Positions 1 through 51,682 of a stretch of DNA of 64,000 nt are shown here, in pieces. The notes beneath the pieces are model-generated. The model did not search any database. It saw only the letters and a list, made by a program, of their open reading frames with translations, and was not told where the DNA came from. Position 1 is the stretch's first letter. Every line of letters begins with the position of its first letter. The position numbers were made by a program, and so were the translations under genes. The DNA is from Deltaproteobacteria bacterium (GTDB taxonomy: Bacteria; Myxococcota; Myxococcia; SLRQ01), in contig SLRQ01000050.1 in the NCBI GenBank assembly GCA_007130885.1, positions 38,661 to 102,660 on the forward strand, in the 5' to 3' direction.

Positions 1-3000
1 TGGCCTCGGCCAAATCGATTGCCGCGATTATGCGGCGGCACTTGGGCTCAAAGAGAGCTCCCATGGAGCAGGTGGGATCGGATGCTATCCACACGCGCTC
101 CAGGCCCTCTGGATGCTTGGAGGTGTAGTTGGTTACAAGGCCCACCACAACGCCGCAGGTGCTCTCCCCGAGAGGTCGATCCGCTGGAATCAATGCTCTT
201 CCATCCGGGTCGAGATCCAGCTCCATGAAACGGCCTCGCACCATGTCCAGGTGCGGCACCGCCCCCCTCGAGCTCGAGTGACCCTCGAGCATGCGCGCAA
301 GCTCGTAGGGGTATACGCAGCCCATGCGGCTGGCGCGGACGACGCGCAGCTCGTAGGGCGATAGGGCGCGGATGGGGACCTTGGAGGGCGTCTCGGTGCG
401 TACCTCCATGCGATGGCGGCCGGGGCGCTCCACCACGAAGACCGTGTCGCTTGTCTCTCCGCTCTCCGAGGACAAGGTACGAGCGCAGACCACGACCTTC
501 TCGAGGCCGAGGCCACGAGCGTGAGCCTCCAGCCGTCGAGCAGCCCTTACGATACCTTGGACATCCAGGCGCATCAGGGGACGTACGTGGAACGTGATTC
601 GGTTCCAGCGCAGGCGCCGCCGGGGGTCGCGGCGTGACTGCTCCTGCCTTATGACCCGCAGGGCCTCGAACCAAGCTCGTTCGAACTCCCAAAGGCTCTC
701 GTCCTTGCCGGCTTCACCCAGGTCATCGGGCACGTCGCCCACCTCGGCCGTTACGAATATTCGCTCATCTTCGGGGTTGCTCCGGGCGTGCGCCCGAAAG
801 GCGACTATTTGTTCAGGCGCCTCGATGCGTTCGAGCTCGAACTCCGAAAGACGCCAAATCTCCAGACGGCGAGCGGTCTCGGGGTGAATGTCGAAGCAGT
901 TGGGGTCCGCCGTGAGAGAGTCACCGAAATGCACCCAGGTTCTATGGTGAAGCGAGTCGGTGCCGTTGGCCCAGCTGACGGTGAGCCGGGCGAGACCTTT
1001 CTCCAGCAACGCGGGAGCAGCGGCGTCGATAGCGTGCCGGATGGCCGGCTCGTCACAGTTGCCAAAAAGTACCAGCTCCGCGATGTCGAGGCTGGTCTCG
1101 GCGGTTATCAGAGCCAGCAGCCGTTCTAAACTGGTCGAGTCGCCCAGAACCGCGAGAAGCATCCTTCCTTCTCTGTCAAAACGAGCGGTGGTAACGCTTT
1201 CGTTCGGTCGGGATTCGGTCAGGAGCCGGATATCCCGGCCTGCGTGGAGCCTTTGGACCATTGCTCGAAGAAGCAGGGGGGCCTCCGGTTTACCCGGGTC
1301 GGCCTGCTCCAGAATGTGCGGAAGCAGGGGATGATGCGAGCCGGCCAGCGCCTGAACCAAGGTTTCATCCTCGCCGGTCGAGCAGCGGCCGGTTCGCCAC
1401 TTTTCGAGCAATTCATGCAAACCCAGTTTGACTTCCTTGCGCCGTTGGACCCAGCGGAACTGTTCGAAGAGCACGTAAGCGGCCTGCCTGGCGTTGTCCG
1501 CGACAGAGGGATGGCTGTGATGCGCGACTTGTGCAACTTTTTCCAGCACATCCGCCAGCCCGGGATCCTCGAAGGTCGTTCCGGACTCATGCAAGGTGAC
1601 CACGACGCGGAGTATGGCGCTCGCCAACCGGTGGCGTGGTGCGCAGTGCGCATGCGCGACCGCGATCCGCCAAAGAGCTTCACGGAGGGCGTCGGAAGGA
1701 TCGAGGGAGCGTACGTCGTAAGCCTCGAGAGCCGGCCGGAGTAGTTCCATCACCGCTTCCGGGCAGCCGCTCTCGCCTTCTTGATGGCGACGGCAAAACT
1801 CGTAAAAGGCCAGCTCGGCGCTCACGGCCGAGGATCTTCCCTTCAGAGGGAGGAGATTCCGGTTGAAAAGCGACTCGACGTCGGCGAAGCACGCGAGCAG
1901 CTCCACGAGCCTCGTCCAGCGTTCCGGATGGGATAGCGACCTGAAAGCTTGTTCGTTACCAAGCAGAGCATCAATCCTATCCACGATGGCGGCCGGCACT
2001 TCATAGCCGAGAAACGCGCCCTTGAGAATGAAGATCAGGTCATCGATGACCTCCGCGGCCTCCACCGGCTTCAGCCTGTCGAGGATTGCCGGAGATGGCC
2101 GGCCTTCCGCAAACAGGCTGGAACACTTCGTTGGTGCGAGACCCGGCGGATGCTTCTCGGTGCTCCCTGATGTCTTATCGGCTTTTCGGGAGGAATCGAG
2201 GGTGTCGTCGAGTATGACCATCGGTTGTCCGGCGCGCACCTGTTGATTCGGCTGGCATAGTACCGATCGGACCAAGCCGGCTTCCCGGGCGAAGACGGGC
2301 ATCTCCATCTTCATGGCTTCCAGTGTCAGCAAAAGGGTGCCGGCCTCAACGGCGTCGCCTTCGCTCACGGCGAGATGGACGACCGTGGCCGGAGCGGGTG
2401 CTGCGATGACTCCGCCGGTAGCGTGCTCGACGTTCTGATGTACACCGTCAACCTCCACCGATATGCCGGTTCGCCCCCTGGAGTAGAGGACCTGATGACG
2501 CCGCCCCGAAATGTGGAGCACGGCGGAGTGGGGTCCGGTTGGTTCCAGGGTGACATCCTTCAGCAAGTCGTCGGGTCCGGCAAGATATCGATTTGGGCCG
2601 ATGGCGTGGACTCGAATATCGTGCACTCGACCTCGGATCCGCAGGTCGATCTCCAGGCCTTCCGGCGAGGGCAGCCGAGTGGGAATGCCGTTCTGGACCT
2701 CGGCGAAGAACTGCTGCAGGGCAATCCGGCGTCGGTCCCGCCAGGTGACGATAGCGGCGGCCAAGAGAGCTTCCATCTGCCGCGCGGGCTCACTGAACAG
2801 GCCATCGGCCGAGGCCCGATCGAGCCAGCCGGTGTCGGCTCGGGCCTCCAGGAAGGTAGGATTGGCGAGGAGCTCCAAGAGAAATGCCTTGTTGGTGGCT
2901 CCATCCTCGATGACGACGGCCATCTCGCGGAGCGCTCTCGTGAGACGAGCGATTGCTTGCCGCCTGTTCGATCCCCACGCGATGATTTTGGCGATCATCG

Positions 3001-4219
3001 AGTCGAACTCGGGGGCGATGGTCATCCCCTCCGCGAGACCAGTGTCGACACGTACTCCAGGCCCCGATGGCGGACGAAAGAGCCGGACGAAGCCGGGACT
3101 GGGAGCAAAGTCTCGTTCGGGATTCTCCGCGTTCAAGCGAACCTCGATAGCGTGACCCCTCGTTTCCGGGACTGCATTCTCAAGCCAAGGAAGGCCCCGG
3201 GCGATGTCTATCTGCGCTTTTACGAGGTCTATGCCCGTTACGGCTTCCGTAACCGTATGCTCCACTTGAAGACGGGAGTTCACCTCCAAGAACCAGGCGG
3301 ACCTTGTTGTCGAATCGTAAAGGAACTCAGCCGTCCCCACACCCTCGTAGCCGGCGATCTCGGCCATGCGAGCGGCCGCCGACTCGAGCTCTCGGGCGGT
3401 TTCGAACGGCAGAACCGGAGAAGGTGACTCCTCGAGCACCTTTTGATGCCTGCGCTGGATCGAACAGTCGCGTGTGCCCAAGGCCTTCGCTTTGCCATCC
3501 GCGCCGCAGGCTAGCTGAACCTCAATATGGTGCGCGCCCGTGACGCACTTCTCGATCAGTACTCCCCCCTCTCCGAAAGAGGCGAGCGCCTCCTGCCTGA
3601 CGGCTTTGAGCGCGGGGACCAGCTCGTTCGGGTGGTCTACCCTGCGAATGCCGCGTCCTCCACCTCCCGAGGATGCCTTCACCATTAGTGGATAGCCGAC
3701 GCTTTCGGCCTGTGCCGATATCCCGTCTTGCGTGGCGTCATCCGGCGCAACGAACCATGGTGCCACCGGCACATCGGCCTTGGCGGCTATCTTGCGAGAA
3801 GTGATCTTGTCCCCGAGCAGTCGCATGGCCTTGGATGACGGCCCCAGGAAGACAATGCCCGCCTCCTCGACTTTTTCGGCGAAGGCGGCGTCTTCGGCAA
3901 CGAAACCCCAGCCCGGCCACACGGCGTCGCAGCGTGCGGCGAGAAGATGTGACAGGACGTGCTCGTGGTCGCAGTAAGCGCTGCAAGGTCCTCGCCTGTC
4001 CGCTTCGGTGCCTCCGCTCGAGGGCCTTCGAAGAGCGGGACCAAGGTGTACGCTCTCATCAGCCATGCGGGTAAACGGAGTGCCTTGGTCGGGATCCGTA
4101 AAGAAAGCCACGGCGGCAAGGCTTGTGCCTCTCTCGATGTTGTACTCGCGCAAGGCGCGGATGAACCGGACGGCGGCTTCGCCTCGGTTGAGGACGGCGA
4201 TACGGTCAAAAGACCTCAT
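1..4219 (-). CDS. Single-chain biotin-dependent acyl-CoA carboxylase (BC-BCCP-CT fusion), 5' complete; C-terminal carboxyltransferase part runs off the window start (>1406 codons in window)
   Basis: Hand translation of the minus strand from ATG 4219-4217 gives MRSFDRIAVLNRGEAAVRFIRALREYNIE...AVWPGWGFVAEDAAFAEKVEEAGIVFLGP...YPLMVKASSGGGGRGIR, a biotin carboxylase ATP-grasp N-terminus. The same frame at 2200-2390 gives ...VSEGDAVEAGTLLLTLEAMKMEMPVFAREAGLVRSV..., a biotinyl domain with the EAMKM motif. The frame is still open at 1-700 (codon tops = 1 mod 3). No ORF in this frame appears in the supplied track, consistent with it lacking an in-window stop. The ATG overlaps the acpS stop (ATGA). 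Confidence 0.75.
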   Translation of the reverse strand, partial: MRSFDRIAVLNRGEAAVRFIRALREYNIERGTSLAAVAFFTDPDQGTPFTRMADESVHLGPALRRPSSGGTEADRRGPCSAYCDHEHVLSHLLAARCDAVWPGWGFVAEDAAFAEKVEEAGIVFLGPSSKAMRLLGDKITSRKIAAKADVPVAPWFVAPDDATQDGISAQAESVGYPLMVKASSGGGGRGIRRVDHPNELVPALKAVRQEALASFGEGGVLIEKCVTGAHHIEVQLACGADGKAKALGTRDCSIQRRHQKVLEESPSPVLPFETARELESAAARMAEIAGYEGVGTAEFLYDSTTRSAWFLEVNSRLQVEHTVTEAVTGIDLVKAQIDIARGLPWLENAVPETRGHAIEVRLNAENPERDFAPSPGFVRLFRPPSGPGVRVDTGLAEGMTIAPEFDSMIAKIIAWGSNRRQAIARLTRALREMAVVIEDGATNKAFLLELLANPTFLEARADTGWLDRASADGLFSEPARQMEALLAAAIVTWRDRRRIALQQFFAEVQNGIPTRLPSPEGLEIDLRIRGRVHDIRVHAIGPNRYLAGPDDLLKDVTLEPTGPHSAVLHISGRRHQVLYSRGRTGISVEVDGVHQNVEHATGGVIAAPAPATVVHLAVSEGDAVEAGTLLLTLEAMKMEMPVFAREAGLVRSVLCQPNQQVRAGQPMVILDDTLDSSRKADKTSGSTEKHPPGLAPTKCSSLFAEGRPSPAILDRLKPVEAAEVIDDLIFILKGAFLGYEVPAAIVDRIDALLGNEQAFRSLSHPERWTRLVELLACFADVESLFNRNLLPLKGRSSAVSAELAFYEFCRRHQEGESGCPEAVMELLRPALEAYDVRSLDPSDALREALWRIAVAHAHCAPRHRLASAILRVVVTLHESGTTFEDPGLADVLEKVAQVAHHSHPSVADNARQAAYVLFEQFRWVQRRKEVKLGLHELLEKWRTGRCSTGEDETLVQALAGSHHPLLPHILEQADPGKPEAPLLLRAMVQRLHAGRDIRLLTESRPNESVTTARFDREGRMLLAVLGDSTSLERLLALITAETSLDIAELVLFGNCDEPAIRHAIDAAAPALLEKGLARLTVSWANGTDSLHHRTWVHFGDSLTADPNCFDIHPETARRLEIWRLSEFELERIEAPEQIVAFRAHARSNPEDERIFVTAEVGDVPDDLGEAGKDESLWEFERAWFEALRVIRQEQSRRDPRRRLRWNRITFHVRPLMRLDVQGIVRAARRLEAHARGLGLEKVVVCARTLSSESGETSDTVFVVERPGRHRMEVRTETPSKVPIRALSPYELRVVRASRMGCVYPYELARMLEGHSSSRGAVPHLDMVRGRFMELDLDPDGRALIPADRPLGESTCGVVVGLVTNYTSKHPEGLERVWIASDPTCSMGALFEPKCRRIIAAIDLAEA
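2306..2320 (-). other. Biotin attachment motif E-A-M-K-M (biotinyl-lysine codon 2309-2311) inside the BCCP domain of the fused carboxylase
   Basis: Hand-translated codons 2320..2306 on the minus strand read E A M K M, flanked by TLLLTLE and EMPVF. Confidence 0.7.
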
Positions 4220-4626
4220 TGCTCCACCCTCTCTAGAATCACGGTGGCCGCGGCGAAGGGTTCATCGTGGCTCAAGGAAACGTGCGCATTACCCACTCCG
4301 AGGCTCTCCGCCGCGCCGGCTACACGGCCGTGTAGTCGTATGGCGGGACGTTTCCATGCGTCGTTGACAATCTCGATTTCGCGAAGGTCGAGTCCGCCGA
4401 AGGTTGGAGCGAGGCCGCGACGAGCGCTGGACCAAGCTTTCACGAAAGCCTCCTTGGCGGCATAACGCACGGCAAGGTGAGGAGCCATGTCGTCACCGGG
4501 GCGGGATTTTGCCGTGCGCAGCTCGCCCGCCGTGAAGGTGCCCTCGGCGAAGTTCGTTCCGGGCTCGCCGAGCTGCTCGCGAAAGCCTCCGAGATGGACC
4601 ACATCGATCCCTACTCCGAGAATCAT
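4216..4626 (-). CDS. acpS: Holo-[acyl-carrier-protein] synthase (AcpS-type 4'-phosphopantetheinyl transferase)
   Basis: 136 aa, MILGVGIDVVHLGGF...AAKEAFVKAW is the AcpS signature. Its start ATG overlaps the FAS stop (ATGA at 4626-4623) and its stop overlaps the carboxylase start. The fas-acpS order matches Corynebacteriales. Confidence 0.85.
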   Translation of the reverse strand: MILGVGIDVVHLGGFREQLGEPGTNFAEGTFTAGELRTAKSRPGDDMAPHLAVRYAAKEAFVKAWSSARRGLAPTFGGLDLREIEIVNDAWKRPAIRLHGRVAGAAESLGVGNAHVSLSHDEPFAAATVILERVEQ

Positions 4627-7600
4627 GCTCCCGCCTCCGTTTTGGCCTCGACCTCATCTCCTGACGGAGTGCTCGAGGATGGTTCGGTATTGGACGCTGC
4701 TCGCGAAAACACCCCTCTAGCGGGATCGAAGCGCGCGTTCGGATCGAGCAGCATGGAGGCTTCCTCGTCGGCTTGCGCGGCGGAACCATCCGGGGCGACG
4801 AAGCGGCGATGGGTTCGCTTGGTGAAAGCTGCTTCCTCGCCCATCCAAACCTTGGCCCTATGCCGCTCGGCTTCCTCTCTTCGATTCGAGGAGCGGCGCA
4901 GCCAGCTTTCGCGCTCTTTGGGGGACATCAGCCCGGCGAAGCAATCGGGATGCAGCACCAGAGCTACTCCGCTTACGTGACCGAAGCCCAAGGTGGTCAA
5001 CAGTCCCGCTCGAAGAGGGAGCGCTGGGCCGGGTCTGAGGGAGTCGTCGCTGAAGGCCAAATGCGAATGCGACCGCATCGCCGGGTCCACGTTCTCGAGG
5101 TTCCGGTTTCCGGGGATGATGCCCGCGGCTAGGGACTGACACAGGCCGATGATCTGCCATGCCGCTGCTCCGCCCTTGGCGTGACCTGTCAGGCTCTTTT
5201 GAGATACCACCCAAAGGGGGTTCCCCGGCGTTCGTTCGAGAGATTCCTGGATGCGGTGGTGAAGGTCGCTCTCATTGGGGTCATTCGCGTTTGTGGACGT
5301 GTCGTGCTTCGAGACGAAAGCGATGTCGTCGGTAGTCAGACCGAAGCGGGCAAGGGCTTCGCCGAGCGGCGAGTGCCGTCCACCGGTTGCGCAGGCGAGG
5401 GCTCCCATGCCGGGCGCGGGAATCGATTTGTGGATGCCGTCCCCGAAGGAGGCGGAGTAGGCGAGAACCCCAAGGACGGGTAGCCCCATTCGAGCAGCTA
5501 CGTCGCCTCGGGCCAGCAGCAGCGTGCCGCCTCCTTGCGCCTCGATGAAGCCACGGCGCCTGATATCGTTCGCTCGTGACATCTGCTCCGGCTCCATGCC
5601 CATCGCTTGCATCTCGCTGCTGGAAGCCGTGGCCCCCATGTCGGCAAAGCCAAGCGCCCCTTCCTTGCCTATGTCGTCGAAGCCTCCAGCGATCACGAAG
5701 TCGGCTTTACCAACTCGGATCTTGTCCATCGCCTCCTCGATGGAGACGTTGGCGGTTGCGCAAGCTCCGACGGGGTGAATCATCGGGCCGTAGCTTCCCG
5801 AAAAGGCCTGAACTGCATACGCGGCGACAACGTTGACCAGGGTCTCTTGAAGGATGTCGCCTTGGCGCTCTTGACCCAAAATATGGTCGAGGTAGAGCCG
5901 GTGTAGGCTTTGCATGCCGCCGATGCCCGAACCCTGGGTGTTTCCGACTCTAGAGGGATGGATCCAGGTGTACAGCTCCTCCGGAGTCAGACCGGCCGAA
6001 AGGAATGCGTCCGCTGTTGATATGAGGTTGAAGATGGTCGCGCGGTCCAAAGTCTCGACCATCTCGGCTGGAACGCCGTAGCGCGCCGGGTCGAAACCGC
6101 GAGGGACGATGCCTGCAACGCTTCTGTCGAAGTCGACCTCCCGCGGGACCCTGACCTCCGTGCCCGCCAGGCGGGTGACGGTCCATCGATCGCTTTGCGG
6201 GTCATAATGAGCTCGCGTGTTCTCGGGATCGTTTTGCAGGAAGCTCCTTGCTTCTTGCTCGGAGGTGACTGGAAACGAGAAGTCGCGCTCGAGCCACACC
6301 TTGGCCAGCACCGGCGCCCGCTCGGGGTCGTAGCCCGCGGTCTCCGGTTCGATGAATCGGATGCCGCTTTGCTTTCTCACGGTGCTCTCATACCGGGCTT
6401 TGATCTCGGTCTCCTGTACCGCCTCTTCGGTTTCCACGTCGATCCATCCCGATGGAGGTCCCGGCTCCCAGCGGACCAGCCCCGTCATCCAGGCGAGCTC
6501 GAGCACGCCGGCCGACGAGAGAGAGTCCTCGGTTTCGATCTCGAAGCGTGGGCGCGCGCTTCCAAACGGACCAACTTCTCCGGCTCCGACTATGACGACG
6601 GTTTCCGATAGGGGCGTTTCAACCGATGTAGGCCACGGCCGGAGCGAAGGAGGGTTGACGGCTTCGGGCCAGGCGTCCGAGCCGGTGACGGTACTGCGGG
6701 GCACGTTCACGGAATCGAGGAGCTCCGCCTCCTTCGACGAAAGAGCTGCAAGTCTCCTCTTCTTGGTGGTGGCCGCGTCGATGCGGCTCCTTATCCGGTC
6801 CACGGTGGCGCGAAGATTGGCAATGCGCCCGATTCCACCGGTGAGGTCGGCTCGCAAGGGTGTCTTGGACGCGGCGGCGCGAAGATCGTCCGTACATAGA
6901 CCGGCTAGGACCAGGCCCATCTCCGCGCTCGAGAAGGTGCGAGCTCCGGTTTCTTCCTCTAACGCCGCGGCGACGGGATCGTTGGCATCCATGAGGCCGG
7001 TACCTCTGACCCAGCCGATTCGAGCACCGCATATCGTAGTTGCGTTACCCCAGGCTTCTTGCTCGCTGTGCCAGCGCGACAAGAGAGTCTCTAGGCCGGC
7101 CTTGCTCTCGGCGTAGGTTCCGTCGCCTCCGAAGTCACCGTGATTCGGTGAAAGCGGAAGCAGAACGTGGCACGGGCTCCGAGGGATCCCAATTCTTGCA
7201 AAACGAGACGCCACGGCGCCAACCAAGCGCTCTACTCCAAGCAGCATGGCGCGCATGGCCGCTTCCGTGTGAGGCGAAAGACCATCCAAGGTGCCGATCT
7301 GCTTCAGAGCGCCGAAGGGCACCAATATGTCCGGAGCAAACGGCCTTTTGGTGGTTCGGACAGTTGCTCCGGCTTGCTCGGTGATCTCGCCGAAGACCCA
7401 GTCCGCGAGAGCGTCGATGTCCCCGACCGATGCCTGGTTGAACGGAACGACGTGAAGCTCGGCCTCGGGAGAAGCCTCGTGCTGGAACAGCCGCCTGTAA
7501 GAGAGCAGTCTGTCCTTGTTGTAAGTGGACGTCGTCAGCAGAACTCGAGCGCCGCCGCGCAGGAGATGGCGAACCAGCTCGAAGGCGATGGAGCCCGGCC

Positions 7601-10600
7601 CGGCTCCAGTGACCAGCGCCGTCCTCCCAGTGAAGTCCAAGGGATGCTTCGTGGCCGAAGCCAGTACTTCCCTGAAGACCGAGTCGAGACGGTCATCGTC
7701 GGGAGAGAGGGCGTCGCCGGAGAGCTCGATCTCGTTTGCGAGAGATTTCAGCGCGTCCGGGCGTGGGTCCGGCCGTTCTTCGTATCTAATCGAGCCGTTT
7801 TCAGCGATCTCGACCCGCGGCCGGGTTGCTTGGACTGGAACGGGCGCCGGCGATAATCGACCGGAGGCGAGCGATTCGAGGGCCTTCGCCAGCTCCTCTC
7901 GACCGTCCAGGCGAGCAAGCGAAGCGTACCAGGATGCCGTGGAGCAAAATCTTTCGGCATCGCGTCCTCTGCTGTGAACGGCAAGTCGCGCCGTCTCCTC
8001 CGCTAGGCGCGAGATGGACAGCCGATCGTTGGAGGCGTCCAAGTAGAGTTTTGCAATATCGCGTTGCGCGAAAGCCCAAGGAGAAGAGAACGCGACGTGT
8101 CGTTTTGACTCGAAGCTGGGCCTCACCATGCGCTCATACTCCGGTCCGTGCTCTGCCTCCCATGTTTCTAGGCGGGTTTCGGGGGACTCTTGCTTGCTTG
8201 TACCGGCTTCGCCGGCCGTAGCGTCCAGCCTGTGACCTAGATGGCCGGCCAGATCGCGAGCCGCGCGCATGAGTGCCCCGTCGGGTCCGGTGAGGCGTTC
8301 CTCGAGTGCTTCGACGGCCGCGGCGTCCACCACCTGCTGTTTCCCATTGCTCGAAGAGCCTCTTTTTCGAAGAGGGAGCCCGTTGCGATCCGCAAGTGTC
8401 TTGCAAACTTCGTCCAGCAGCTCATACGCCGCCGCCTTGCCGGCCGGCCGGAGGCCTGCCAGGGAGCCGAGAGGGCCTCCACGCGCGGATGTCCCCTCCC
8501 GGCTTTCGAGAGCGAGAAGGTCGAGTGCGGAGCTGATGAGTCCCGGGCCTAGGTTCCATTTTTCCGTGAGGTACTTTTGTGCCGCTTTGCGGTTGAGCCC
8601 CGACCGACCAAGAACTCGCCCTATGGCTTCGTCCTGTACTCCTCGGGTGAAGGGGCCGGGACCCATCCATGACCGGGCTCTGTGGGAAATATCCGCCGCA
8701 AGGACGCCAAGAGGACGTTCGGAGGCTCCGTCTATGGTGCCTAGGTTGAACTCGGCACCCAGGTCCACGAGAGCCTGATTGCGGCGCGATGACACGCCAT
8801 CGAATAAGCCGTCGATGGTTTCATCGTCATCGATTTGTTCGAGCCGAAGTCGAGCTTGCGTCGCCATCATGAGCCGGATTGCATCGAGAGGGCTTACCGG
8901 ATGGTCGACCGGCTCGGCGTCAGGCTCGGCACCCGTTTCAATGACGCTTTCGTTCGCTGAACGGGAGGGCTCCGCCACTTCTTCTCTTGTTGCGCCGGGC
9001 TTGCTCGAGGGAGACGGGCAGGCCTCGGTCGTGTCGTCTCCCGGGCCGTCCGAGGTGGGATCGTCGCGGTCGAGGCAGAGTACGCGATCCAGGTCGGCCT
9101 CCGCGTGCAGAATTTCCACTGTGTCGGCTTGGCCGAGATAGCCGAGGGTAGCCCTGGCCATGTTGGTCAAGACGGGTTGATGTTCGACGCCGATTTCGAT
9201 GATTCGCTCTACGCCGAGACCGCCTTCGTCTCGAGAACGAAGGAGCAGCTCTTGAGTCTCAATCCATCGAACCGGGCTTGCGAACTGCCAGGCCAGCAGC
9301 TCCACGAGTATGGTGCGAGCCAGGGCATCGGGCTGCCTGGCTAATTTGTCGTAGTCGTCGAGCACCTCATCCAGGGCCCGAGTTCCCGTCAGCTCGCGTA
9401 TCTCCAGAGCGAAGGAGCGCTCTAGTGAGAACGGAACGGCGAGCAGGTTCGGCACGTAACGGCCTACCAATCGATCGGCGGGAAGCCTGGCGGGAAGAGC
9501 CGCGTCGATGGCATCCCGGAATGCGTCGACTCCGTCGGAGAGCAGCTCCGAGTGGAAGGGCACGTCGATTCCGGGAACCTCGACGTACGGAGGCTTACCG
9601 CCTACCGCAATCTCCTCGAGCGAATGCCGCAGTTTCTCGAGAGCTTCGATTCGTCCGGTGACGGAGTACTGTCGTCCTCGAACATTGTAATTGACGATTT
9701 GCAGAAAGGCGCCGGTGCTATCTCGAATGTCGCCCACGAGCCGCACCGCCATTTCGTGATCGAGGCCGGCATAGTGGGGCCGAATGACCCCCATTCCGTA
9801 GCCGCTCTCCCCGCGGTCGTTTCTAGGAACGAGACCGTGCATTACGAGCCCGCGCTGGTGGACTACCTCGATGAGGGTCTCGAGCGGCAGGATGCCTAGA
9901 AGAGCTCCAAGCGCGTTGTACTCGCCCACACTGTGGCCGCAGGTGACCGCATCCTCCGCCAGAACGCCGCGCTCACGCAGCTCGGCGGCTTGGGCTTGTG
10001 CCAGAACGGCCATGGCTACCTGAGTGAACTGAGTGAGATTCAGTACGCCTTTTGGGTGTACCAGCGAGCGACCGTTCACGACTATCTCGGAAGGGTTATC
10101 GCGGACGATGCGTAGAATGGAGAAACCTAGAGAGCGCCTGGTAAAGGCGTCGGCGCGATCCCAGATCTCGCGGCAGGCCGCGGAGCGGGCATACCCGGCC
10201 ATTCCCATGTCGCTTCGCTGAATGCCCTGACCTGGAAACACATAGGCGGTGCGAGGGGCGGCGATGCGGGCCTCGGAGCGGGCGATCGGCACGAAGTCGT
10301 CGTCGCGGCGGACCTTGGCCGTCAGCGTTACATTGAGATCTCCAGCGGCAGTGCCGGTGCGCACGGCTTCGAGCCGCAAAGGCTCCCCCGGCAGGGCCGG
10401 GGCAAGGAACTCGGTCTCTTGCTTGCGAAGTCGACCTCTATCTCCAGCGGCGATCTCTTCGATCGCGAAGGCGGTAAGACGCGCGGAGGTCCACATGCCG
10501 TGCGCTATGGGCCTTTCCAGGCCCGCGAATCTCGCCATGACCGGACTGTAATGGATGGGGTTCAGATCCTGCCCGGCCTCGGCGAATGCGTGCATGGACG

Positions 10601-13600
10601 ATGGTACGCGAGCGTCGATGGAGGCCAGTGAAAGCGGTGGTGTTTCCTTGGTCTCCTCGCTCGATGAGCCATTCGAAATCTCGGATACGGGAGTGAATCC
10701 AAGAGGCTCGATTGCCGCGAGGATCGGATGGATCCGGGCGCGCGAGCTTGTGTCTAGAGCGATCGTCCCCAGTATCTCCGGCTCCTTGTTATTCGTGCTC
10801 GCTCGCAACAGACGACCGCCGGCCTCGAAGCGGGCTGTCTCGTTTCGCGGGCGAATCTCGCCAAGCAAACACTCCATGGTGAGCCGGTCACCGGCGGAAA
10901 GCTTGATCCCCGGCTTCAGGGAGAGCCAGTCGTGTCCGGAAAAATATTCGGCCGCCGCCTCGTCGGACAACGTGAAAGCCAGCCGTTTCGGCTCGTCGGC
11001 TCGAACGGAGAACCGGGTGTGTCCGAAGGGTTCCCTCACGAAGAACGTCGAAAGGACCAGGGCGGCGAGCTTGCCGTCCTTGTGTATTTCCGACCGCGCC
11101 TGAAGAGTCCGACCATCACTTCGATCCTCTATGCGCGTCAGGCGCGCCTTTACATCGACTTTGTCGCCCACTCGAAGGGGCCATGTTTCGCCGGGTTCGA
11201 ACTCGTGACGAAGATGAACTAGTCGCGAGAGACCGCCGGCGACTTCCTTGTGAGATAGAACGCGGAACAATGGCTCCCAAACAAGAGAGAAGCACAGATC
11301 CGGGGGCGCCTTCGGTGAGTATTGAAGGCCGGTCAAAGCCGCGTAGTCCTTGACGCGTGCCGGCTCCACGAGTTTGCGGTCCCATGCGGTCTCAAATGGC
11401 GTTACCGCGTCTAGGGGACCTCCAAACAGCGAGGCGTGATAGAAATCGCGCAGGCTTTCGGCATGGTCATCCGGATTGGATACGAAAAGGCCCGACCTGG
11501 GGTGCCGGTTCCAGATGAGCACCAGCGGTGGAGGGGAGGCCGCTTGGTCCGGCAGGGTCGCCATTTGAATAGTCAACCGGATGCATTGGTCGCGTCCGCC
11601 CGACTCCGTGCTTGGGAGAAGGTCGACGGTCACTGACTCGAGGCCGTCCGGACAGACATAGCCCAGGGAGCGTCCCGCTTGGTCGACGGACAGCCTCGCG
11701 CCCTTGAGTGTTCTTATCAGCTTGGGTAGGGGGTTTGGTTTCGATAGCCGGCCTTCGCCGAACCTAGGCGCGACGATGAAATCGGCCAAGGGCGCGGCAC
11801 AACGCGCTCTTACGACCCGGATAAATGACTCCGGTGCGGCGCCGGCGGTCGCACGGAATACGACCTCTTTCGGCTCTTCGTCCATTATGAGGCCTTGGGG
11901 AAGAGGGAGGGCCTTGGCCCTTGAACCCGATGCCTTGACGTCTTCGAGAAGAGCGGAATCAAAGCGGCTCAAGAGGTCCGCCACGGGTTCATCGACCTTG
12001 GTTATCCCTCTCACTGCTTCGGGGCCGGGAAGTACGAGAACCTTGTCCGCTTCAAAGCGGGCCTCGTCCTGCAGCCAGAGGGAGTCGGATTTGTACCAGC
12101 GTCTGACGTCTTCATCGATGATGGGCACGAAGTTCACGGGCTTGCCGGGTCTCGCGCATACTTCCCGGATGAACCAGTGTACGTCGGCGGGCCCCGGACG
12201 ACGCATTGCCGCTTCAGGCCAGCGAGCGACGAGGCGGTCCAAGACCGCCTTGGGATCGTCTAGCTCGTCAAGATGGCCCAGCGTACTGGGAACGGTGCGA
12301 CCAGCGGGTGCGAGTCTTGACTCTGCTCTCCAGAGCACGTCCGCGACGCGAGAGCGCCAACCGGCGTCGGGCCAAATGCCGTCCTCATAACGCCCACCCG
12401 AGCCGATCGCCATTAAGGACACCATGCGCTGGAGGACCTCCAGCCAGCTCATTCGGTCTAGGTCGCCGAAGAAGGGCTTTGCGGTTTGGTCGAGGGCTTT
12501 GACTATTTCGTCCCGCCGAGCCGCGATTGCATCGGCGTCGCCTGCTACCTGATCGAGCAGTCGCCCGCATCTTGCGGCCGCGTTGTCGATGTAGTGGATG
12601 TCGGCGGCGAGCTGGCTCTTGCCGGAGGTGATGCCTCCCTCGGACTCGCCGGACAGAACCCAACTTTCACCGCCTGGGGTTTCGACAAGAGCCTGCTTTA
12701 CGGCCGGTGAAGCCTTGGACTCCTTGCAAGCCATTGCGAGCGTGCCAAGAAAAACGGCGTCGACCGGCATGGGATCCAGCTCATACCGGCATGCCCACCT
12801 GCCCGTGAGCAGCTCGACGGCGCGTGCCTCTGTGGCTATTCCGCCGCCGGCGCAGAGGATCACGTTCGGTCTAGAGCGGAGAAGGTCATAGCCGGCAAGC
12901 AGAAGCTCGTCGAGGTCCTCCCACGAGTGGTGCCCTCCGGCTTTTCCTCCTTCCACGTGCACGAAGATCGTGTGCTCCGGAGCCGCTTCAGCTATGCGGC
13001 CCACTTGCTGCACTTGAGCGATCGTTCCGGGCTTGAACGCGTTCAACCAGATGTCATTCGCGCGAAGCTCGTCCAGAAGGGCGCGTGCCTGGTCCGTATC
13101 GGGTATCCCCGCGCTGATGGTTAGTCCGCGAATAGGTGCGCCGGCGGCGCGTGCCTTTTGAACCAACTTCCGCCGGCGAATATGCAGATCCCACAGGTAG
13201 GGGTCCAGATATAGAGCGTTGAATACGATCTCACGGCCGGGGTCCAAGGTTTCGGATAGCTCCTCCATGCGCAGGTTGAACGTTCGCTCGGTTACCTGAC
13301 CTCCACCGGCGAGCTCCGCTACAAAGCCGGCGTTCGCGGCGGCGGCGACGATCTCCACATCGACTGTTGTCGGGGTCATTCCGCCGAGAATGAAGGGAGG
13401 GCAGCCGGTGGCTCTCGTGAAGCTGTTTTCGGCGGTCAAGGCTCCCCGACTGGTCGAAAGCGAGGGGGCGAGTTCTTCATAGCGGATGATGGGCGGTATG
13501 CTTTCGGGAGAGCTTTCCGAGAAGAGACGCTCTCGGCCGGTCGGCTCGGAAAGAGGGATGACCTCGACTCCGCTTCCCTTGAGAATGGAGCGTGTCAAAC

Positions 13601-14852
13601 GGGCCGCGGCGTCGCCCGGGCCCAAATCCAAGATGTGTTGAAGCTCACCATCTCGCCTGAGCTCTCGAATCGCGCGTGTCCACCGTACAGGCTCTATGAA
13701 CTGCATGTTGACTAGGGCACCGGTGAGGTCGGACGAGTCGTTGAGGCGCTCACCGGTGGCGGGGGAGATGCAGTCGATGACGAGGTCGAATGCTTCCACG
13801 GCGAAGCCGATCTCGCGGACGGTTTGGCGCATGGACTGAAGGCCGGATGCCATGGCTGGAGAGTGGTAAGGGCCGCCCACCGGCAGATCCTCCCACGTGA
13901 AGGTTCCGATTTGCCCGGCGAAACGGCCTGCTCGCCGGAGCTTGGTTTCTCGATCGGCCCGAGCCGCGAGCCACTCGTGGAGACGATAAAGAGCCCTGGG
14001 AGGTCCGCTGACGACGAACCGGGTCCTCGTATTATGCAGAGCAATTACTATCGGTGTACCCGGCGATGCACTCTCTCGGCCACCGTCAATCGTCCCAGAA
14101 TCGAGCAGCCTGTTCACCGCTTCGACCCCTTCGGACAGACGCTCGAGCGTGAGGCCCGAGATGGCGGCCATGGGCGCGGTCCCTGATTGTTTCGCGGTTT
14201 CGGGGGCCTTGGCCCAAGACTCAGCCATATGAAGGCCTTGCCAGGCCATGTATCGGACGTAATCCAGAAAGCGTTTCCTCGAGACAATGCCGCGGGGGCT
14301 CTCGGCTATCAGCACAGAGGGCATTACTCCTTGGGAGTGGCCCAAAGAGGCCTTTATCGCGCCCGACTCGAACGCCGCGGAGAGGCCTTCGTTGAAGGCC
14401 GCGATGTATCTTGCCATCTGTGTGATAAAGAGCAGCGGCTGGGATACGAGCGAGGAGGATAGGTAATCCGCTGTGGGGCGAGCGCTCTCATCACGTACCC
14501 ATCGCAGCAAATCGAGGCCTTGGTCCACGAAGCCGCTGGACCGGAACGAGCGCTCGAGGGCCAGGTCGCGAAGAAGCACGTCGGCCGCGTCGACCCATTC
14601 GCGAACGACCGGCGAGTCACGATAGATATCCGAAAGCTCATCGATACAAGAAGCTCCTTGGCCGGCGAATGCGACGGCCGCGGAGGTCTTGCCTCGAGCC
14701 AGTAGGGCCGCCAGCGAAGACTGCAACGGCTTCGGGATGGACTCGTCGGTCTCGGACAAGACCGACTGGTCTACTTTGGTCTCGAATGACCTGCCTCCGT
14801 TTACCATTTCCGCGGCGATGCTCGAACTCTTGTCTCCACGACCGTGACTCAT
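4623..14852 (-). CDS. fas: Type I fatty-acid synthase, bacterial (CMN-type) single polypeptide, 3409 aa: AT-ER(FMN TIM barrel)-DH-MPT-ACP-KR-KS
   Basis: AFAGQG and GHSQG (AT). FILGGMTPTTV...ELAGGGQ...HVEGGKAGGHHSWEDL (fungal/CMN-type FMN enoyl reductase). DLNPIHYSP (hot-dog DH). YVFPGQGIQ and CGHSVGEY (MPT). LVDLGAEFNLG (ACP). TALVTGAGPGSIAFEL (KR). VGACATANVS and GHAKGGAAAW (KS). Confidence 0.9.
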   Translation of the reverse strand: MSHGRGDKSSSIAAEMVNGGRSFETKVDQSVLSETDESIPKPLQSSLAALLARGKTSAAVAFAGQGASCIDELSDIYRDSPVVREWVDAADVLLRDLALERSFRSSGFVDQGLDLLRWVRDESARPTADYLSSSLVSQPLLFITQMARYIAAFNEGLSAAFESGAIKASLGHSQGVMPSVLIAESPRGIVSRKRFLDYVRYMAWQGLHMAESWAKAPETAKQSGTAPMAAISGLTLERLSEGVEAVNRLLDSGTIDGGRESASPGTPIVIALHNTRTRFVVSGPPRALYRLHEWLAARADRETKLRRAGRFAGQIGTFTWEDLPVGGPYHSPAMASGLQSMRQTVREIGFAVEAFDLVIDCISPATGERLNDSSDLTGALVNMQFIEPVRWTRAIRELRRDGELQHILDLGPGDAAARLTRSILKGSGVEVIPLSEPTGRERLFSESSPESIPPIIRYEELAPSLSTSRGALTAENSFTRATGCPPFILGGMTPTTVDVEIVAAAANAGFVAELAGGGQVTERTFNLRMEELSETLDPGREIVFNALYLDPYLWDLHIRRRKLVQKARAAGAPIRGLTISAGIPDTDQARALLDELRANDIWLNAFKPGTIAQVQQVGRIAEAAPEHTIFVHVEGGKAGGHHSWEDLDELLLAGYDLLRSRPNVILCAGGGIATEARAVELLTGRWACRYELDPMPVDAVFLGTLAMACKESKASPAVKQALVETPGGESWVLSGESEGGITSGKSQLAADIHYIDNAAARCGRLLDQVAGDADAIAARRDEIVKALDQTAKPFFGDLDRMSWLEVLQRMVSLMAIGSGGRYEDGIWPDAGWRSRVADVLWRAESRLAPAGRTVPSTLGHLDELDDPKAVLDRLVARWPEAAMRRPGPADVHWFIREVCARPGKPVNFVPIIDEDVRRWYKSDSLWLQDEARFEADKVLVLPGPEAVRGITKVDEPVADLLSRFDSALLEDVKASGSRAKALPLPQGLIMDEEPKEVVFRATAGAAPESFIRVVRARCAAPLADFIVAPRFGEGRLSKPNPLPKLIRTLKGARLSVDQAGRSLGYVCPDGLESVTVDLLPSTESGGRDQCIRLTIQMATLPDQAASPPPLVLIWNRHPRSGLFVSNPDDHAESLRDFYHASLFGGPLDAVTPFETAWDRKLVEPARVKDYAALTGLQYSPKAPPDLCFSLVWEPLFRVLSHKEVAGGLSRLVHLRHEFEPGETWPLRVGDKVDVKARLTRIEDRSDGRTLQARSEIHKDGKLAALVLSTFFVREPFGHTRFSVRADEPKRLAFTLSDEAAAEYFSGHDWLSLKPGIKLSAGDRLTMECLLGEIRPRNETARFEAGGRLLRASTNNKEPEILGTIALDTSSRARIHPILAAIEPLGFTPVSEISNGSSSEETKETPPLSLASIDARVPSSMHAFAEAGQDLNPIHYSPVMARFAGLERPIAHGMWTSARLTAFAIEEIAAGDRGRLRKQETEFLAPALPGEPLRLEAVRTGTAAGDLNVTLTAKVRRDDDFVPIARSEARIAAPRTAYVFPGQGIQRSDMGMAGYARSAACREIWDRADAFTRRSLGFSILRIVRDNPSEIVVNGRSLVHPKGVLNLTQFTQVAMAVLAQAQAAELRERGVLAEDAVTCGHSVGEYNALGALLGILPLETLIEVVHQRGLVMHGLVPRNDRGESGYGMGVIRPHYAGLDHEMAVRLVGDIRDSTGAFLQIVNYNVRGRQYSVTGRIEALEKLRHSLEEIAVGGKPPYVEVPGIDVPFHSELLSDGVDAFRDAIDAALPARLPADRLVGRYVPNLLAVPFSLERSFALEIRELTGTRALDEVLDDYDKLARQPDALARTILVELLAWQFASPVRWIETQELLLRSRDEGGLGVERIIEIGVEHQPVLTNMARATLGYLGQADTVEILHAEADLDRVLCLDRDDPTSDGPGDDTTEACPSPSSKPGATREEVAEPSRSANESVIETGAEPDAEPVDHPVSPLDAIRLMMATQARLRLEQIDDDETIDGLFDGVSSRRNQALVDLGAEFNLGTIDGASERPLGVLAADISHRARSWMGPGPFTRGVQDEAIGRVLGRSGLNRKAAQKYLTEKWNLGPGLISSALDLLALESREGTSARGGPLGSLAGLRPAGKAAAYELLDEVCKTLADRNGLPLRKRGSSSNGKQQVVDAAAVEALEERLTGPDGALMRAARDLAGHLGHRLDATAGEAGTSKQESPETRLETWEAEHGPEYERMVRPSFESKRHVAFSSPWAFAQRDIAKLYLDASNDRLSISRLAEETARLAVHSRGRDAERFCSTASWYASLARLDGREELAKALESLASGRLSPAPVPVQATRPRVEIAENGSIRYEERPDPRPDALKSLANEIELSGDALSPDDDRLDSVFREVLASATKHPLDFTGRTALVTGAGPGSIAFELVRHLLRGGARVLLTTSTYNKDRLLSYRRLFQHEASPEAELHVVPFNQASVGDIDALADWVFGEITEQAGATVRTTKRPFAPDILVPFGALKQIGTLDGLSPHTEAAMRAMLLGVERLVGAVASRFARIGIPRSPCHVLLPLSPNHGDFGGDGTYAESKAGLETLLSRWHSEQEAWGNATTICGARIGWVRGTGLMDANDPVAAALEEETGARTFSSAEMGLVLAGLCTDDLRAAASKTPLRADLTGGIGRIANLRATVDRIRSRIDAATTKKRRLAALSSKEAELLDSVNVPRSTVTGSDAWPEAVNPPSLRPWPTSVETPLSETVVIVGAGEVGPFGSARPRFEIETEDSLSSAGVLELAWMTGLVRWEPGPPSGWIDVETEEAVQETEIKARYESTVRKQSGIRFIEPETAGYDPERAPVLAKVWLERDFSFPVTSEQEARSFLQNDPENTRAHYDPQSDRWTVTRLAGTEVRVPREVDFDRSVAGIVPRGFDPARYGVPAEMVETLDRATIFNLISTADAFLSAGLTPEELYTWIHPSRVGNTQGSGIGGMQSLHRLYLDHILGQERQGDILQETLVNVVAAYAVQAFSGSYGPMIHPVGACATANVSIEEAMDKIRVGKADFVIAGGFDDIGKEGALGFADMGATASSSEMQAMGMEPEQMSRANDIRRRGFIEAQGGGTLLLARGDVAARMGLPVLGVLAYSASFGDGIHKSIPAPGMGALACATGGRHSPLGEALARFGLTTDDIAFVSKHDTSTNANDPNESDLHHRIQESLERTPGNPLWVVSQKSLTGHAKGGAAAWQIIGLCQSLAAGIIPGNRNLENVDPAMRSHSHLAFSDDSLRPGPALPLRAGLLTTLGFGHVSGVALVLHPDCFAGLMSPKERESWLRRSSNRREEAERHRAKVWMGEEAAFTKRTHRRFVAPDGSAAQADEEASMLLDPNARFDPARGVFSRAASNTEPSSSTPSGDEVEAKTEAGA

Positions 14853-15287: not shown

Positions 15288-16448
15288 TCAGGCCTTCTCG
15301 GCCAGCTTCGAAGCCTGTCGCACCAGAGCGGCGAAGGCGGGGACAGGTACCGGTTTGGTGTGAGGAAGATCGAAGTAGCGAGTGCGGAGCCCCTTGCCTC
15401 GAAGCTTGGCCTCGGGGTCCGAGATGGCGATGCCGTTCTCGAAGGTTACGCGCGTGGCATCTTGACGTGGCTCTATTCGGCAAATGACCGTGCCGCCCCT
15501 GATGTAGCCGAGCGCCTTCTTTCCCCTGGTCAGGCGCTCGCTGGCGTCCGGTGCCGACTCGAGAACCAGGCGCCGTAGCGTGAAAACTTGCTCATGGGCG
15601 ATTTGCGGCATCAAAGCCAAGAGAGCCTTGATCTCTTCCTCTTCGACCCGTGCTCCTTCGATGGCGCTATCAGCCTTTTGGTGTCGGGTTAGAGCGGCGG
15701 TTTCGCCTGCATGCACCCGGCGAAACAGGCGGCCGAGCACACCCACGATCTGTGCCCCGGCTGATGAGCCGTCCTCGGTGCCTTCAGCTTCCGAGTGCGG
15801 CTTGATTCCGATTTGACCTGCGGAGGTGTTCACTCTTTGGAGCAGGCGTCCGAGTACGCCCATGACCTGCCCGAACGCCTGCGGGGGCCGGGAGCTGTCG
15901 AACTCCGAGAGCTCCCATGTCAACAAGCCGGTGTAGGCCCCAAAAATGGCTGATGCGACACCTTGCAGCTCGTCTTCGTTGAGCTCGTCTTTGAGGGCTG
16001 GGCGCAGCATTTCGGCTATGGCGGTTCGAGAGCGGCGATGGAAGCGGGAGAGAGCCTCGCGGATCTTGGGGTCGCGCCGGGCGTGCACCGCGAACTCGAG
16101 CCAAAGAGGAACTATGACCCTGCCGCGGCGGCTTTCCCGCTGAAAGGCACGAGTAATGGCTCCCACGTAGTCAGGCTGATCGAGTGCCTCCTGAAACTGC
16201 TCGTACAGCTCGTCCATCACCTCTCGAGTCCAGGTCTCCAGGATGTCTATGAACACCTCTTGCTTGGACTCGTAGTGCCAGTAGAGGCTGCCCTTGGATA
16301 TGCCTGCTTTCTCGCAAATCGCATCCACGCTGGTCTCGTGGTAGCCGCGATCACGAAAGCACCGATAAGCGGCGCTGCGAATCTCCTGCCGCTTCCGGGT
16401 CCCTTTTGTCGAAGTCTTACGTCTCACCCTGGCTCTCTCATCCGCCAT
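15288..16448 (-). CDS. TetR-family transcriptional regulator, 386 aa, with an unusual long C-terminal extension (possible FasR-like fatty-acid synthesis regulator)
   Basis: N-terminal TetR HTH (RQEIRSAAYRCFRDRGYHETSVDAICEKAGISKGSLYWHY). Lies directly upstream of fas on the same strand. Internal repeat GVLGRLLQRV / GVLGRLFRRV. About 150 extra C-terminal residues. Confidence 0.8.
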   Translation of the reverse strand: MADERARVRRKTSTKGTRKRQEIRSAAYRCFRDRGYHETSVDAICEKAGISKGSLYWHYESKQEVFIDILETWTREVMDELYEQFQEALDQPDYVGAITRAFQRESRRGRVIVPLWLEFAVHARRDPKIREALSRFHRRSRTAIAEMLRPALKDELNEDELQGVASAIFGAYTGLLTWELSEFDSSRPPQAFGQVMGVLGRLLQRVNTSAGQIGIKPHSEAEGTEDGSSAGAQIVGVLGRLFRRVHAGETAALTRHQKADSAIEGARVEEEEIKALLALMPQIAHEQVFTLRRLVLESAPDASERLTRGKKALGYIRGGTVICRIEPRQDATRVTFENGIAISDPEAKLRGKGLRTRYFDLPHTKPVPVPAFAALVRQASKLAEKA

Positions 16449-41653: not shown

Positions 41654-41669
41654 CTTTGTGGGGACGGGC

Positions 41670-45368: not shown

Positions 45369-45402
45369 CTTCGACCCCACCGCTGGTGCTCTCGAGGTTG
45401 CG

Positions 45403-45417
45403 CGCCCCCCAAGGGCG
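45403..45417 (+). terminator. GC-rich hairpin (CGCCC-cccaa-GGGCG) followed by a T-rich tract, immediately after recC; weak intrinsic-terminator candidate
   Basis: 5-bp GC stem, 5-nt loop, then gcgTTCTCTGTAATTG. Confidence 0.3.
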
Positions 45418-45430
45418 GCGTTCTCTGTAA

Positions 45431-45459
45431 TTGAATGCCTTTGTTGCAGCTGCTATCAG
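45431..45459 (+). promoter_or_regulatory. Sigma70-like promoter candidate for the inserted gene pair (-35 TTGAAT, 17-nt spacer, -10 TATCAG)
   Basis: Lies in a locally AT-rich 60-bp stretch between recC and ORF 45485; GAGG lies 11 nt upstream of ATG 45485. Confidence 0.3.
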
Positions 45460-45484
45460 TCAAGGCTTGTAGAGGCTAGTAGCT

Positions 45485-47930: not shown

Positions 47931-47983
47931 TTGTGCCCTGTTGACGAGCTAGTCGGGAGCGACATTCCGACGGATCACTCGAG

Positions 47984-51678
<3,695 letters not shown>

Positions 51679-51682
<4 letters not shown>

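Follow-up and report, generated by a model that had tools for sequence, protein, structure and literature searches.

The 64,000-nucleotide stretch of contig SLRQ01000050.1 analysed here (the window) begins at its left edge with three genes read from the minus strand: fas, for a fatty acid synthase of type I in a single chain (FAS I); acpS, encoding a holo-acyl carrier protein (ACP) synthase; and acc, encoding a large acyl-CoA carboxylase that runs off the edge. Translational coupling joins the three into an operon with acc at its end: the stop codon of fas overlaps the start codon of acpS in an ATGA (4623-4626) and the stop codon of acpS overlaps the start codon of acc in another (4216-4219), with a GGAG located upstream of the acc start. 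The synthase and acpS genes directly upstream of the carboxylase are the most informative feature of the locus, one that is absent from a first-pass annotation made from the letters of the window.

The first-pass annotation had described acc itself as an unlisted frame on the minus strand, and translation agrees with it: from ATG 4219 the frame has 1,406 stop-free codons down to base 2. A run of this length has a probability of about 2.5e-21 of arising by chance at the base composition of the window, and the GC content at codon positions 1, 2 and 3 (0.69, 0.48 and 0.72) is a coding pattern. The frame is missing from the list of open reading frames because those that run off the source end go unlisted; seen merely as a large carboxylase gene, it would be an ordinary annotation gap due to the window edge. 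The continuation expected to the left was found. Extension gives 484 further codons, which hold most of the carboxyltransferase (CT) domain, and then a stop codon. The complete protein, P0001, has 1,890 amino acids and is 100% identical to the window translation across the 1,406 residues. Its gene, stop codon included, is present on k141_82886, an ENA contig of 148 kb, and at NCBI on SKUP01000185.1 (GCA_007129935.1), with identical neighbours on both; we refer to the two loci carrying the identical full-length acc as L001 and L002. No stop or frameshift divides the biotin carboxylase (BC) and biotin carboxyl carrier protein (BCCP) domains from the CT, and the 1,890 codons are uninterrupted.

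The domain order of this single polypeptide is BC-BT-BCCP-central domain-CT, where BT is the BC-CT interaction domain. This is the plan of the eukaryotic acetyl-CoA carboxylase (ACC) in a shorter protein, and it was established from the Pfam domains, the folds of BT and of the central domain, and the affinity of the CT (Table 1). Pfam identifies Biotin_carb_N (residues 4-132), CPSase_L_D2 (137-344), Biotin_carb_C (359-467) and Biotin_lipoyl (605-670), which is the order of BC and BCCP given by the first-pass annotation, and Carboxyl_trans at residues 1360-1860 of the full-length protein (E 4e-37). Within the BC domain, NCBIfam accC-type matches span residues 4-470 and PDB matches reach E values of about 1e-90 to 1e-113. 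Its scores, 383 bits against the alpha subunit of methylcrotonyl-CoA carboxylase (MCC) versus 273-326 bits against yeast ACC, suggest a BC domain of generic type. The BC motifs GGGGRGIR and EVNSRLQVEH and the MKM biotin site are invariant in 22 relatives, and the BC motifs map to E. coli BC residue numbers. The biotinylation motif EAMKM occupies residues 634-638, at 2306-2320, exactly where it had been placed before. K637, at 2309-2311, is the predicted biotinyl-lysine, and the family alignment shows no variation at E634, M636, K637 or E639.

Table 1. Features of the operon and of the carboxylase domains in the window.
Feature	Position	Strand	Residues or size	Basis
acc, single-chain eukaryote-type acetyl/acyl-CoA carboxylase	1..4219	-	N-terminal 1,406 of 1,890 codons	Open frame, P0001, Pfam
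BC domain	2810..4219	-	1-470	Pfam, NCBIfam, PDB matches
BC N-subdomain loop	3974..4036	-	62-82	22-member alignment, Pfam coordinates
BC Gly-rich loop GGGGRGIR	3644-3667	-		Motif, invariant in family alignment
BC catalytic motif EVNSRLQVEH	3257-3286	-		Motif, invariant in family alignment
BT domain (BC-CT interaction domain)	2408..2809	-	471-604	AF2 model, Foldseek
BCCP (biotinoyl) domain	2210..2407	-	605-670	Pfam Biotin_lipoyl, E 4e-15
Linker, low confidence	2129-2209	-	671-697	AF2 model
ACC central domain (AC1-AC5 / CD)	230..2128	-	about 698-1330	AF2, Foldseek, Pfam in relatives
CD-CT junction and first ~47 CT residues	1..229	-	Pfam match from residue 1360 onwards (window 2-142)	Carboxyl_trans
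acpS, holo-ACP synthase	4216..4626	-	136 aa	Pfam ACPS, E 1.8e-16; NCBIfam NF000831
fas, fatty acid synthase of type I (one chain, mycobacterial/fungal type)	4623..14852	-	3,409 aa	Pfam, PDB matches
TetR-family regulator with C-terminal DUF1801	15288..16448	-	386 aa	Pfam TetR_N, TetR_C_6, DUF1801

The two regions between the catalytic domains were characterised by structure prediction with AlphaFold2 (AF2). The model of residues 460-680, built from a 69-sequence alignment, has a pLDDT of 89.2 and consists of one long helix, then an eight-stranded beta-barrel and then the BCCP sandwich; its best Foldseek matches in the PDB (E 2e-11 to 1e-10) are the BT-BCCP units in the alpha subunits of MCC and of propionyl-CoA carboxylase (PCC) and in ACC from human and yeast. 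The model of residues 671-1340 reaches a pLDDT of 91.3 and a pTM of 0.89, and its top 29 PDB matches are without exception ACC central domains from yeast, Chaetomium or human, with E values from 3e-21 to 1.6e-6 and alignments of about 700 columns; the next match has E>8e-3. Pfam ACC_central is matched in 15 of the 22 relatives (best E 2.7e-11). The models thus indicate that the spacer between BCCP and CT is a true ACC central domain. The guess of the first-pass annotation that extra linker or BT-like regions would be present, as in eukaryote-like ACCs, is met by the BT and central domain folds. The source of the extra length that it noted is the central domain and not the GC-rich insertions in BC to which this length had been linked. 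Only one such insertion exists, a minor loop of about 20 residues: Biotin_carb_N takes 129 residues versus 110 profile positions (4-132 versus profile 2-110), with some 12 of the extra residues common to the family and 7 (TEADRRG, 3989-4009) present only in the window protein. Insertions in BC were hence discarded as the origin of the length. The spacer between BC and BCCP has 135 residues in the window protein and 133-163 across the 22 relatives, and the spacer between BCCP and CT has about 650 in the window protein and about 480-690 across the relatives, typically about 650. A CT-like region does begin within the window, with about 47 residues of Carboxyl_trans, although most of the sequence that follows BCCP there is central domain.

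The CT also bears on the class of the enzyme. In a phmmer search of the PDB, the first 20 matches of this domain are all eukaryotic ACCs (E 7.5e-20 to 1e-11), whereas bacterial beta subunits begin at 4.6e-10, with AccD5/PccB at about 3e-9. By this similarity ranking, the CT appears to group with the CT of eukaryotic ACC rather than with the PccB/AccD type. The CT motifs SGA-I-M and GGAY are invariant across the family and align with the yeast CT. The first-pass annotation had called the protein LCC-like, and the presence of BC, BCCP and CT on one chain is indeed a trait of the single-chain carboxylases of long-chain acyl-CoA (LCC) from M. avium and Pseudomonas. Yet it is extremely improbable that acc encodes such an enzyme. 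LCC is an about 120-kDa chain that forms a hexamer and prefers long-chain substrates (Tran et al. 2015, as given in PMC6491548); it is described as a homohexamer without a central region and with the CT N-terminal to BC-BCCP (PMC6491548), whereas the window protein has 1,890 residues (~205 kDa by length), an ACC central domain of about 630 residues and a C-terminal CT. In addition, none of the 37 PDB matches to its CT at E<=1e-3 is an LCC chain, the best being the CT of eukaryotic ACC. Set against the description of LCC, the label fails on domain order, central domain and CT affinity, and on these grounds we ruled it out.

The synthase encoded upstream is equally characteristic. Its Pfam domains are SAT, Fas1-AflB-like_hel, FAS1_DH_region, MaoC, Acyl_transf_1, Fas_alpha_ACP, FAS_I_H and ketoacyl-synt, in the order AT/SAT-ER-DH-MPT-ACP-KR-KS, and Pfam detects no ACPS or phosphopantetheinyl transferase (PPTase) domain inside its 3,409 residues. 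Over the full length, the best PDB matches are the FAS I of M. smegmatis and M. tuberculosis (~2,130-2,160 bits), followed by the fungal alpha and beta chains. Database annotations already name such Myxococcota proteins fatty acid synthase. AcpS matches the NCBIfam equivalog NF000831 with 138 bits (cut-off 124). The three genes are presumably co-transcribed; scans for sigma-70 promoters and intrinsic terminators around the operon's 5' end, and likewise downstream of acc in L001, gave nothing above the shuffled background. On the same strand, 435 nt upstream of fas, lies a gene for a TetR-family protein, whose position alone makes it a candidate regulator of the operon. Its C-terminal DUF1801 is unusual for a TetR-family regulator. 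We found no support for its being a FasR orthologue: the FasR structures 6o6n and 6o6p match only the helix-turn-helix (E ~5e-8) and are not the best matches. At the other end, past the left window edge (L001 15755-20611), an esterase/PHB-depolymerase-like gene follows the acc stop codon after 82 nt on the same strand, and is itself followed by two genes for B12-binding radical SAM proteins on the opposite strand. The esterase-like gene is not kept at other FAS-linked loci, and was rejected as a fourth member of the operon.

The fas-acpS-acc order recurs in other genomes. It is present in L004, L005 and L010 among 80 genome loci, and also at the genes of four further homologs, P0109 (encoded on OW818691.1, a closed chromosome of 9.29 Mb), P0057, P0066 and P0107; among the additional homologs checked, P0010, P0017 and P0099 lack it. 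In all, the operon occurs in at least eight distinct genomes, with ACCs that are 48-57% identical to the window protein. In an approximate neighbour-joining tree of 86 ACCs and 1,800 columns, which is midpoint-rooted and carries no support values, a single clade of 17 sequences holds every FAS-linked ACC. This clade includes the window protein, and its members are labelled Myxococcota, Deltaproteobacteria or Proteobacteria. The other clades are one of Actinomycetota, one of Acidobacteriota and Gammaproteobacteria, and a Polyangia-type group. At one locus of the latter (L043, 4721-15652, plus strand), the ACC gene ends a cluster of separate genes encoding a FabA-like protein, a short-chain dehydrogenase/ketoreductase (SDR/KR), a hot-dog dehydratase, a ketosynthase (KS), a PlsC-type acyltransferase and a PPTase. 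A KS gene lies 2-3 kb upstream of the ACC in about 25 loci (among L012-L072). Because both the FAS-linked clade and the Polyangia-type clade show a synthase/PPTase cluster closed by an ACC, we regard the association of a synthase, a PPTase and a single-chain ACC as a recurrent module. Some ACC relatives look degraded. In the ACC of L004 (10001-15613), codons 173 and 183 are both in-frame stops. In P0099 (L086 10001-15202; 1,733 residues, no adjacent FAS), no Carboxyl_trans was detected.

Taken together, these data make it very probable that acc encodes a homomeric eukaryote-type acetyl-CoA carboxylase that supplies malonyl-CoA beside FAS I. The BC domain would use ATP and bicarbonate to carboxylate the biotin carried by K637 of BCCP; BCCP would then swing to the CT, which would move the carboxyl group to acetyl-CoA, and possibly also to propionyl-CoA, yielding malonyl-CoA in the first case. 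BT and the central domain would act as non-catalytic scaffolds that hold BC and CT in position, like their counterparts in yeast and human ACC, probably within a dimer. As judged from the gene content, supplying malonyl-CoA to FAS I is the likely role of acc: the product would feed the co-encoded synthase, whose ACP domain would be activated by the co-encoded AcpS. Since fas, acpS and acc stand together, one operon would provide the synthase, the activator of its ACP domain and the maker of its extender unit. The operon may thus be a self-contained, metabolically coupled module for CoA-based fatty acid synthesis in an uncultured Myxococcota-type bacterium.

The main rival to malonyl-CoA supply is that an enzyme of the same architecture takes a different short-chain acyl-CoA, be it propionyl-CoA or another, to produce methylmalonyl-CoA or other extenders for branched or specialised lipids, and is not the housekeeping source of malonyl-CoA. 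Three arguments can be made in its favour. First, SACE_4237 of Saccharopolyspora erythraea, a characterised relative, carboxylates propionyl-CoA about as efficiently as acetyl-CoA (PMC6491548). Second, an ACC of another clade is encoded in the cluster of discrete FabA, KR, KS, acyltransferase and PPTase genes described above, which could make a specialised lipid. Third, the FAS is about 320 residues longer than mycobacterial (M. tuberculosis) FAS I, which leaves room for altered product chemistry. However, the MPT domain of the synthase matches FabD/malonyl transferase models, the CT is nearest to bona fide acetyl-CoA carboxylases, and nothing in the operon points to a supply of propionyl-CoA. 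We therefore hold a different substrate to be unlikely, and retain malonyl-CoA supply to FAS I as the role of the enzyme.

A number of observations nevertheless weigh against this assignment. First, the closest relatives of the ACC (L003, L008 and P0017) have no adjacent FAS, and the pairing of ACC and FAS is therefore not obligatory. Second, the sequence does not reveal the substrate specificity, and SACE_4237 takes both acetyl- and propionyl-CoA. Third, the carboxylase activity, biotinylation and expression of the window protein are predictions. Fourth, the window protein itself scores 20.5 bits against Pfam ACC_central, under the curated cut-off of 23.2. Fifth, the analysis covered only part of the metagenome-assembled genome (MAG), which may also hold type II FAS and accABCD genes. 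Sixth, the assignment of the host to a Myxococcota-type bacterium follows the names that the sources give to homologous MAGs.

The nearest homologs of both FAS and ACC come from MAGs named Myxococcota, Myxococcales or Deltaproteobacteria, and the identity of the nearest ACCs is 50-58% in Myxococcota MAGs versus 41-43% in Actinomycetota. The host thus appears not to be one of the Corynebacteriales, the hosts that would be expected for a FAS I of the Corynebacterium, Mycobacterium and Nocardia (CMN) type. No rRNA or marker gene lies in the window, and an Rfam scan of its whole length gave 0 matches. The window content outside the operon is that of an ordinary diderm chromosome and includes genes for LolA-like and FtsX/MacB proteins, proC, GAPDH, recBCD, a DUF4388 protein and an Opp transporter, with LolA-like, FtsX/MacB and DUF4388 being typical of diderms. 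Two signalling genes, one for a CHASE2-adenylate/guanylate cyclase (27807-29966, plus strand) and one for the DUF4388 (PatA_N-like) protein (54356-55600, minus strand), are consistent with a Myxococcota-like host. The recC, recB and recD genes (41631-53730, plus strand) are interrupted: between recC and recB lie the genes for a 340-residue protein without a Pfam match (45485-46507) and for a B12-binding radical SAM enzyme (46494-47930).

An artefact has to be considered at this point, because acc comes from a metagenome assembly and, in the classical view, FAS I belongs to actinobacteria of the CMN group (PMC11714747, PMC9260719). The contig could be chimeric or a mis-binned actinobacterial fragment, or acc could be a decaying pseudogene that is open by chance in the window, as the stops in the ACC of L004 and the missing CT match of P0099 might suggest. 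Several results make all of this very improbable: 1) the same gene and neighbours are found, identical, on two independent assemblies; 2) the operon is present in at least seven further genomes, one of them a closed chromosome; 3) the neighbours of the operon are typical of diderms; 4) the closest homologs are from Myxococcota MAGs, with those of Actinomycetota being lower; and 5) the full-length frame has no stops and its catalytic motifs are intact.

The family to which acc belongs extends well beyond the clade of the window protein. A homolog scan with one genome per species identified relatives in at least 592 species-representative genomes. The best 80 of these loci, which were retained and are full-length matches, were found in MAGs of Myxococcota or 'Deltaproteobacteria', in Acidobacteriota, in Woeseiaceae/Xanthomonadales, in Binatia, in MAGs with the label Spirochaetaceae and in Actinomycetota. 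When the central domain alone was compared with 1.84 billion representatives, it matched 719 clusters at E<=1e-3, of which 115 reached E<=1e-30; the matches listed are bacterial-sized (at most 1,995 residues). The search for FAS homologs was run with the ER-DH part only, and the resulting list consists mostly of partial proteins. The first-pass annotation considered such single-chain enzymes uncommon in bacteria, which is true in relative terms and is hard to maintain in absolute ones, given the number of species that carry a relative. In short, the family is uncommon yet far from confined to Actinobacteria.

Homomeric eukaryote-type ACCs of bacteria were first characterised in 2019 (PMC6491548), and their architecture is now seen to be spread over Myxococcota, Acidobacteriota, Gammaproteobacteria (Woeseiaceae/Xanthomonadales) and other groups. 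This spread over several phyla conflicts with the proposed name of 'actinobacterial homodimeric ACCs' (PMC6491548), and the presence of relatives in so many genomes implies that the actinobacterial origin of the eukaryotic enzyme was deduced from incomplete sampling. A FAS I in a Myxococcota-type genome, coupled to AcpS and a homomeric ACC, also lies outside its textbook confinement to CMN bacteria: in papers of 2022 and 2024, Corynebacterium, Mycobacterium and Nocardia are still the only bacteria credited with a fungal-type FAS I (PMC11714747, PMC9260719). A literature search of limited coverage found no report of a Myxococcota FAS I or of a non-actinobacterial homomeric ACC.

One can go further and suppose that a lineage of Myxococcota possesses a complete 'eukaryote-style' cytosolic fatty acid operon (FAS I, AcpS and homomeric ACC), with a linkage that is ancestral to the whole ACC clade. 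We regard this as a speculative and rather unlikely extension of the data; in a weaker form of the claim, the operon would replace type II FAS and accABCD as the primary pathway in its host organisms. If eukaryotic ACC, fungal-type FAS I or both were to fall beside the myxobacterial clade and not beside Actinobacteria, the 'actinobacterial origin' published for eukaryotic ACC would need revision, as would the 'CMN-only' view of bacterial FAS I, and Myxococcota would gain another link, through lipid metabolism, to the origin of eukaryotes. Bit scores against yeast and human ACC do not discriminate between the three bacterial clades (326, 292 and 321 against 5csk), and by this crude measure the myxobacterial clade is no nearer to eukaryotic ACC than its actinobacterial counterpart. 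From a practical viewpoint, the three-gene unit is compact, should be readily expressed in a heterologous host and should turn acetyl-CoA into acyl-CoA. This makes it attractive to enzymologists and metabolic engineers, and for structural studies of a minimal ACC central domain (~630 residues) that is followed by a short CT.

The locus can be compared with four known systems. The first is the pair of fas and acpS genes of mycobacteria, the CMN-type FAS I. Both have a single-chain AT-ER-DH-MPT-ACP-KR-KS synthase without an integral PPTase, a stand-alone AcpS gene directly after it and a TetR-family gene nearby. They differ in that a homomeric ACC has joined the operon in the window, that the host is a Myxococcota-type diderm and not one of the Corynebacteriales, and that the TetR protein is not demonstrably FasR-like.

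The second system comprises other bacterial carboxylases fused into one chain. LCC and AccADCB carry BC, BCCP and CT on a single polypeptide, like the window protein, but their CT precedes the BC and they have no ACC central domain. AccADCB, a recently solved multifunctional bacterial enzyme (PDB 9KKM; 1,517 residues), has its BC in the C-terminal half, at residues 943-1395. It is a third, independent way of fusing a bacterial ACC into one chain; LCC, AccADCB and the eukaryote-type ACC are independent fusion events.

The third is eukaryotic ACC itself (yeast Acc1, 5CSL/5CSK; human ACC1, 6G2D/8XL0). The order BC-BT-BCCP-CD-CT is shared, the fold of the central domain (over ~700 columns) and the BT-BCCP region match, and the eukaryotic CT is the nearest relative in the PDB. 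The window protein is about 330-450 residues shorter (1,890 versus 2,218-2,346), its CT has about 530-560 residues versus about 750, and identity in the central domain is about 14%. For its BC, bacterial MCC/PCC alpha subunits give higher scores than yeast ACC does.

The closest parallel is SACE_4237, the first bacterial multidomain ACC to be characterised (Livieri et al. 2019, PMC6491548): an essential homodimer of about 200 kDa with a central region, which supplies fatty acid synthesis with malonyl-CoA and complements an E. coli accB(ts) mutant (PMC6491548). It is the only enzyme of the type for which the homodimeric holoenzyme and the acetyl-/propionyl-CoA carboxylase activity have been demonstrated (PMC6491548). 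Our comparison was made through proteins of Pseudonocardiaceae, the group of SACE_4237, and of other Actinobacteria, and through the published description rather than its own sequence; by tblastn, loci of Haloechinothrix, Pseudonocardia, Actinosynnema, Actinophytocola and Gordonia are collinear with the window protein over query residues ~2-1867, at 41-43% identity. The window protein has every sequence- and fold-level feature of the SACE_4237 type. Like the actinobacterial homodimeric ACCs of 'group V' (PMC6491548), it is a single chain of about 200 kDa with BC, BT, BCCP, an ACC-central region and a CT that groups with eukaryotic CT, and it is likewise predicted to supply malonyl-CoA for fatty acid synthesis. 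The carboxylase type was thus already known, and the window protein is a further member. What sets it apart is its context. FAS I is absent beside the ACC at all actinobacterial loci examined, two of Gordonia included, whereas the acc gene of the window, which belongs to another phylum and to a separate clade of the neighbour-joining tree, shares its operon with FAS I and acpS.

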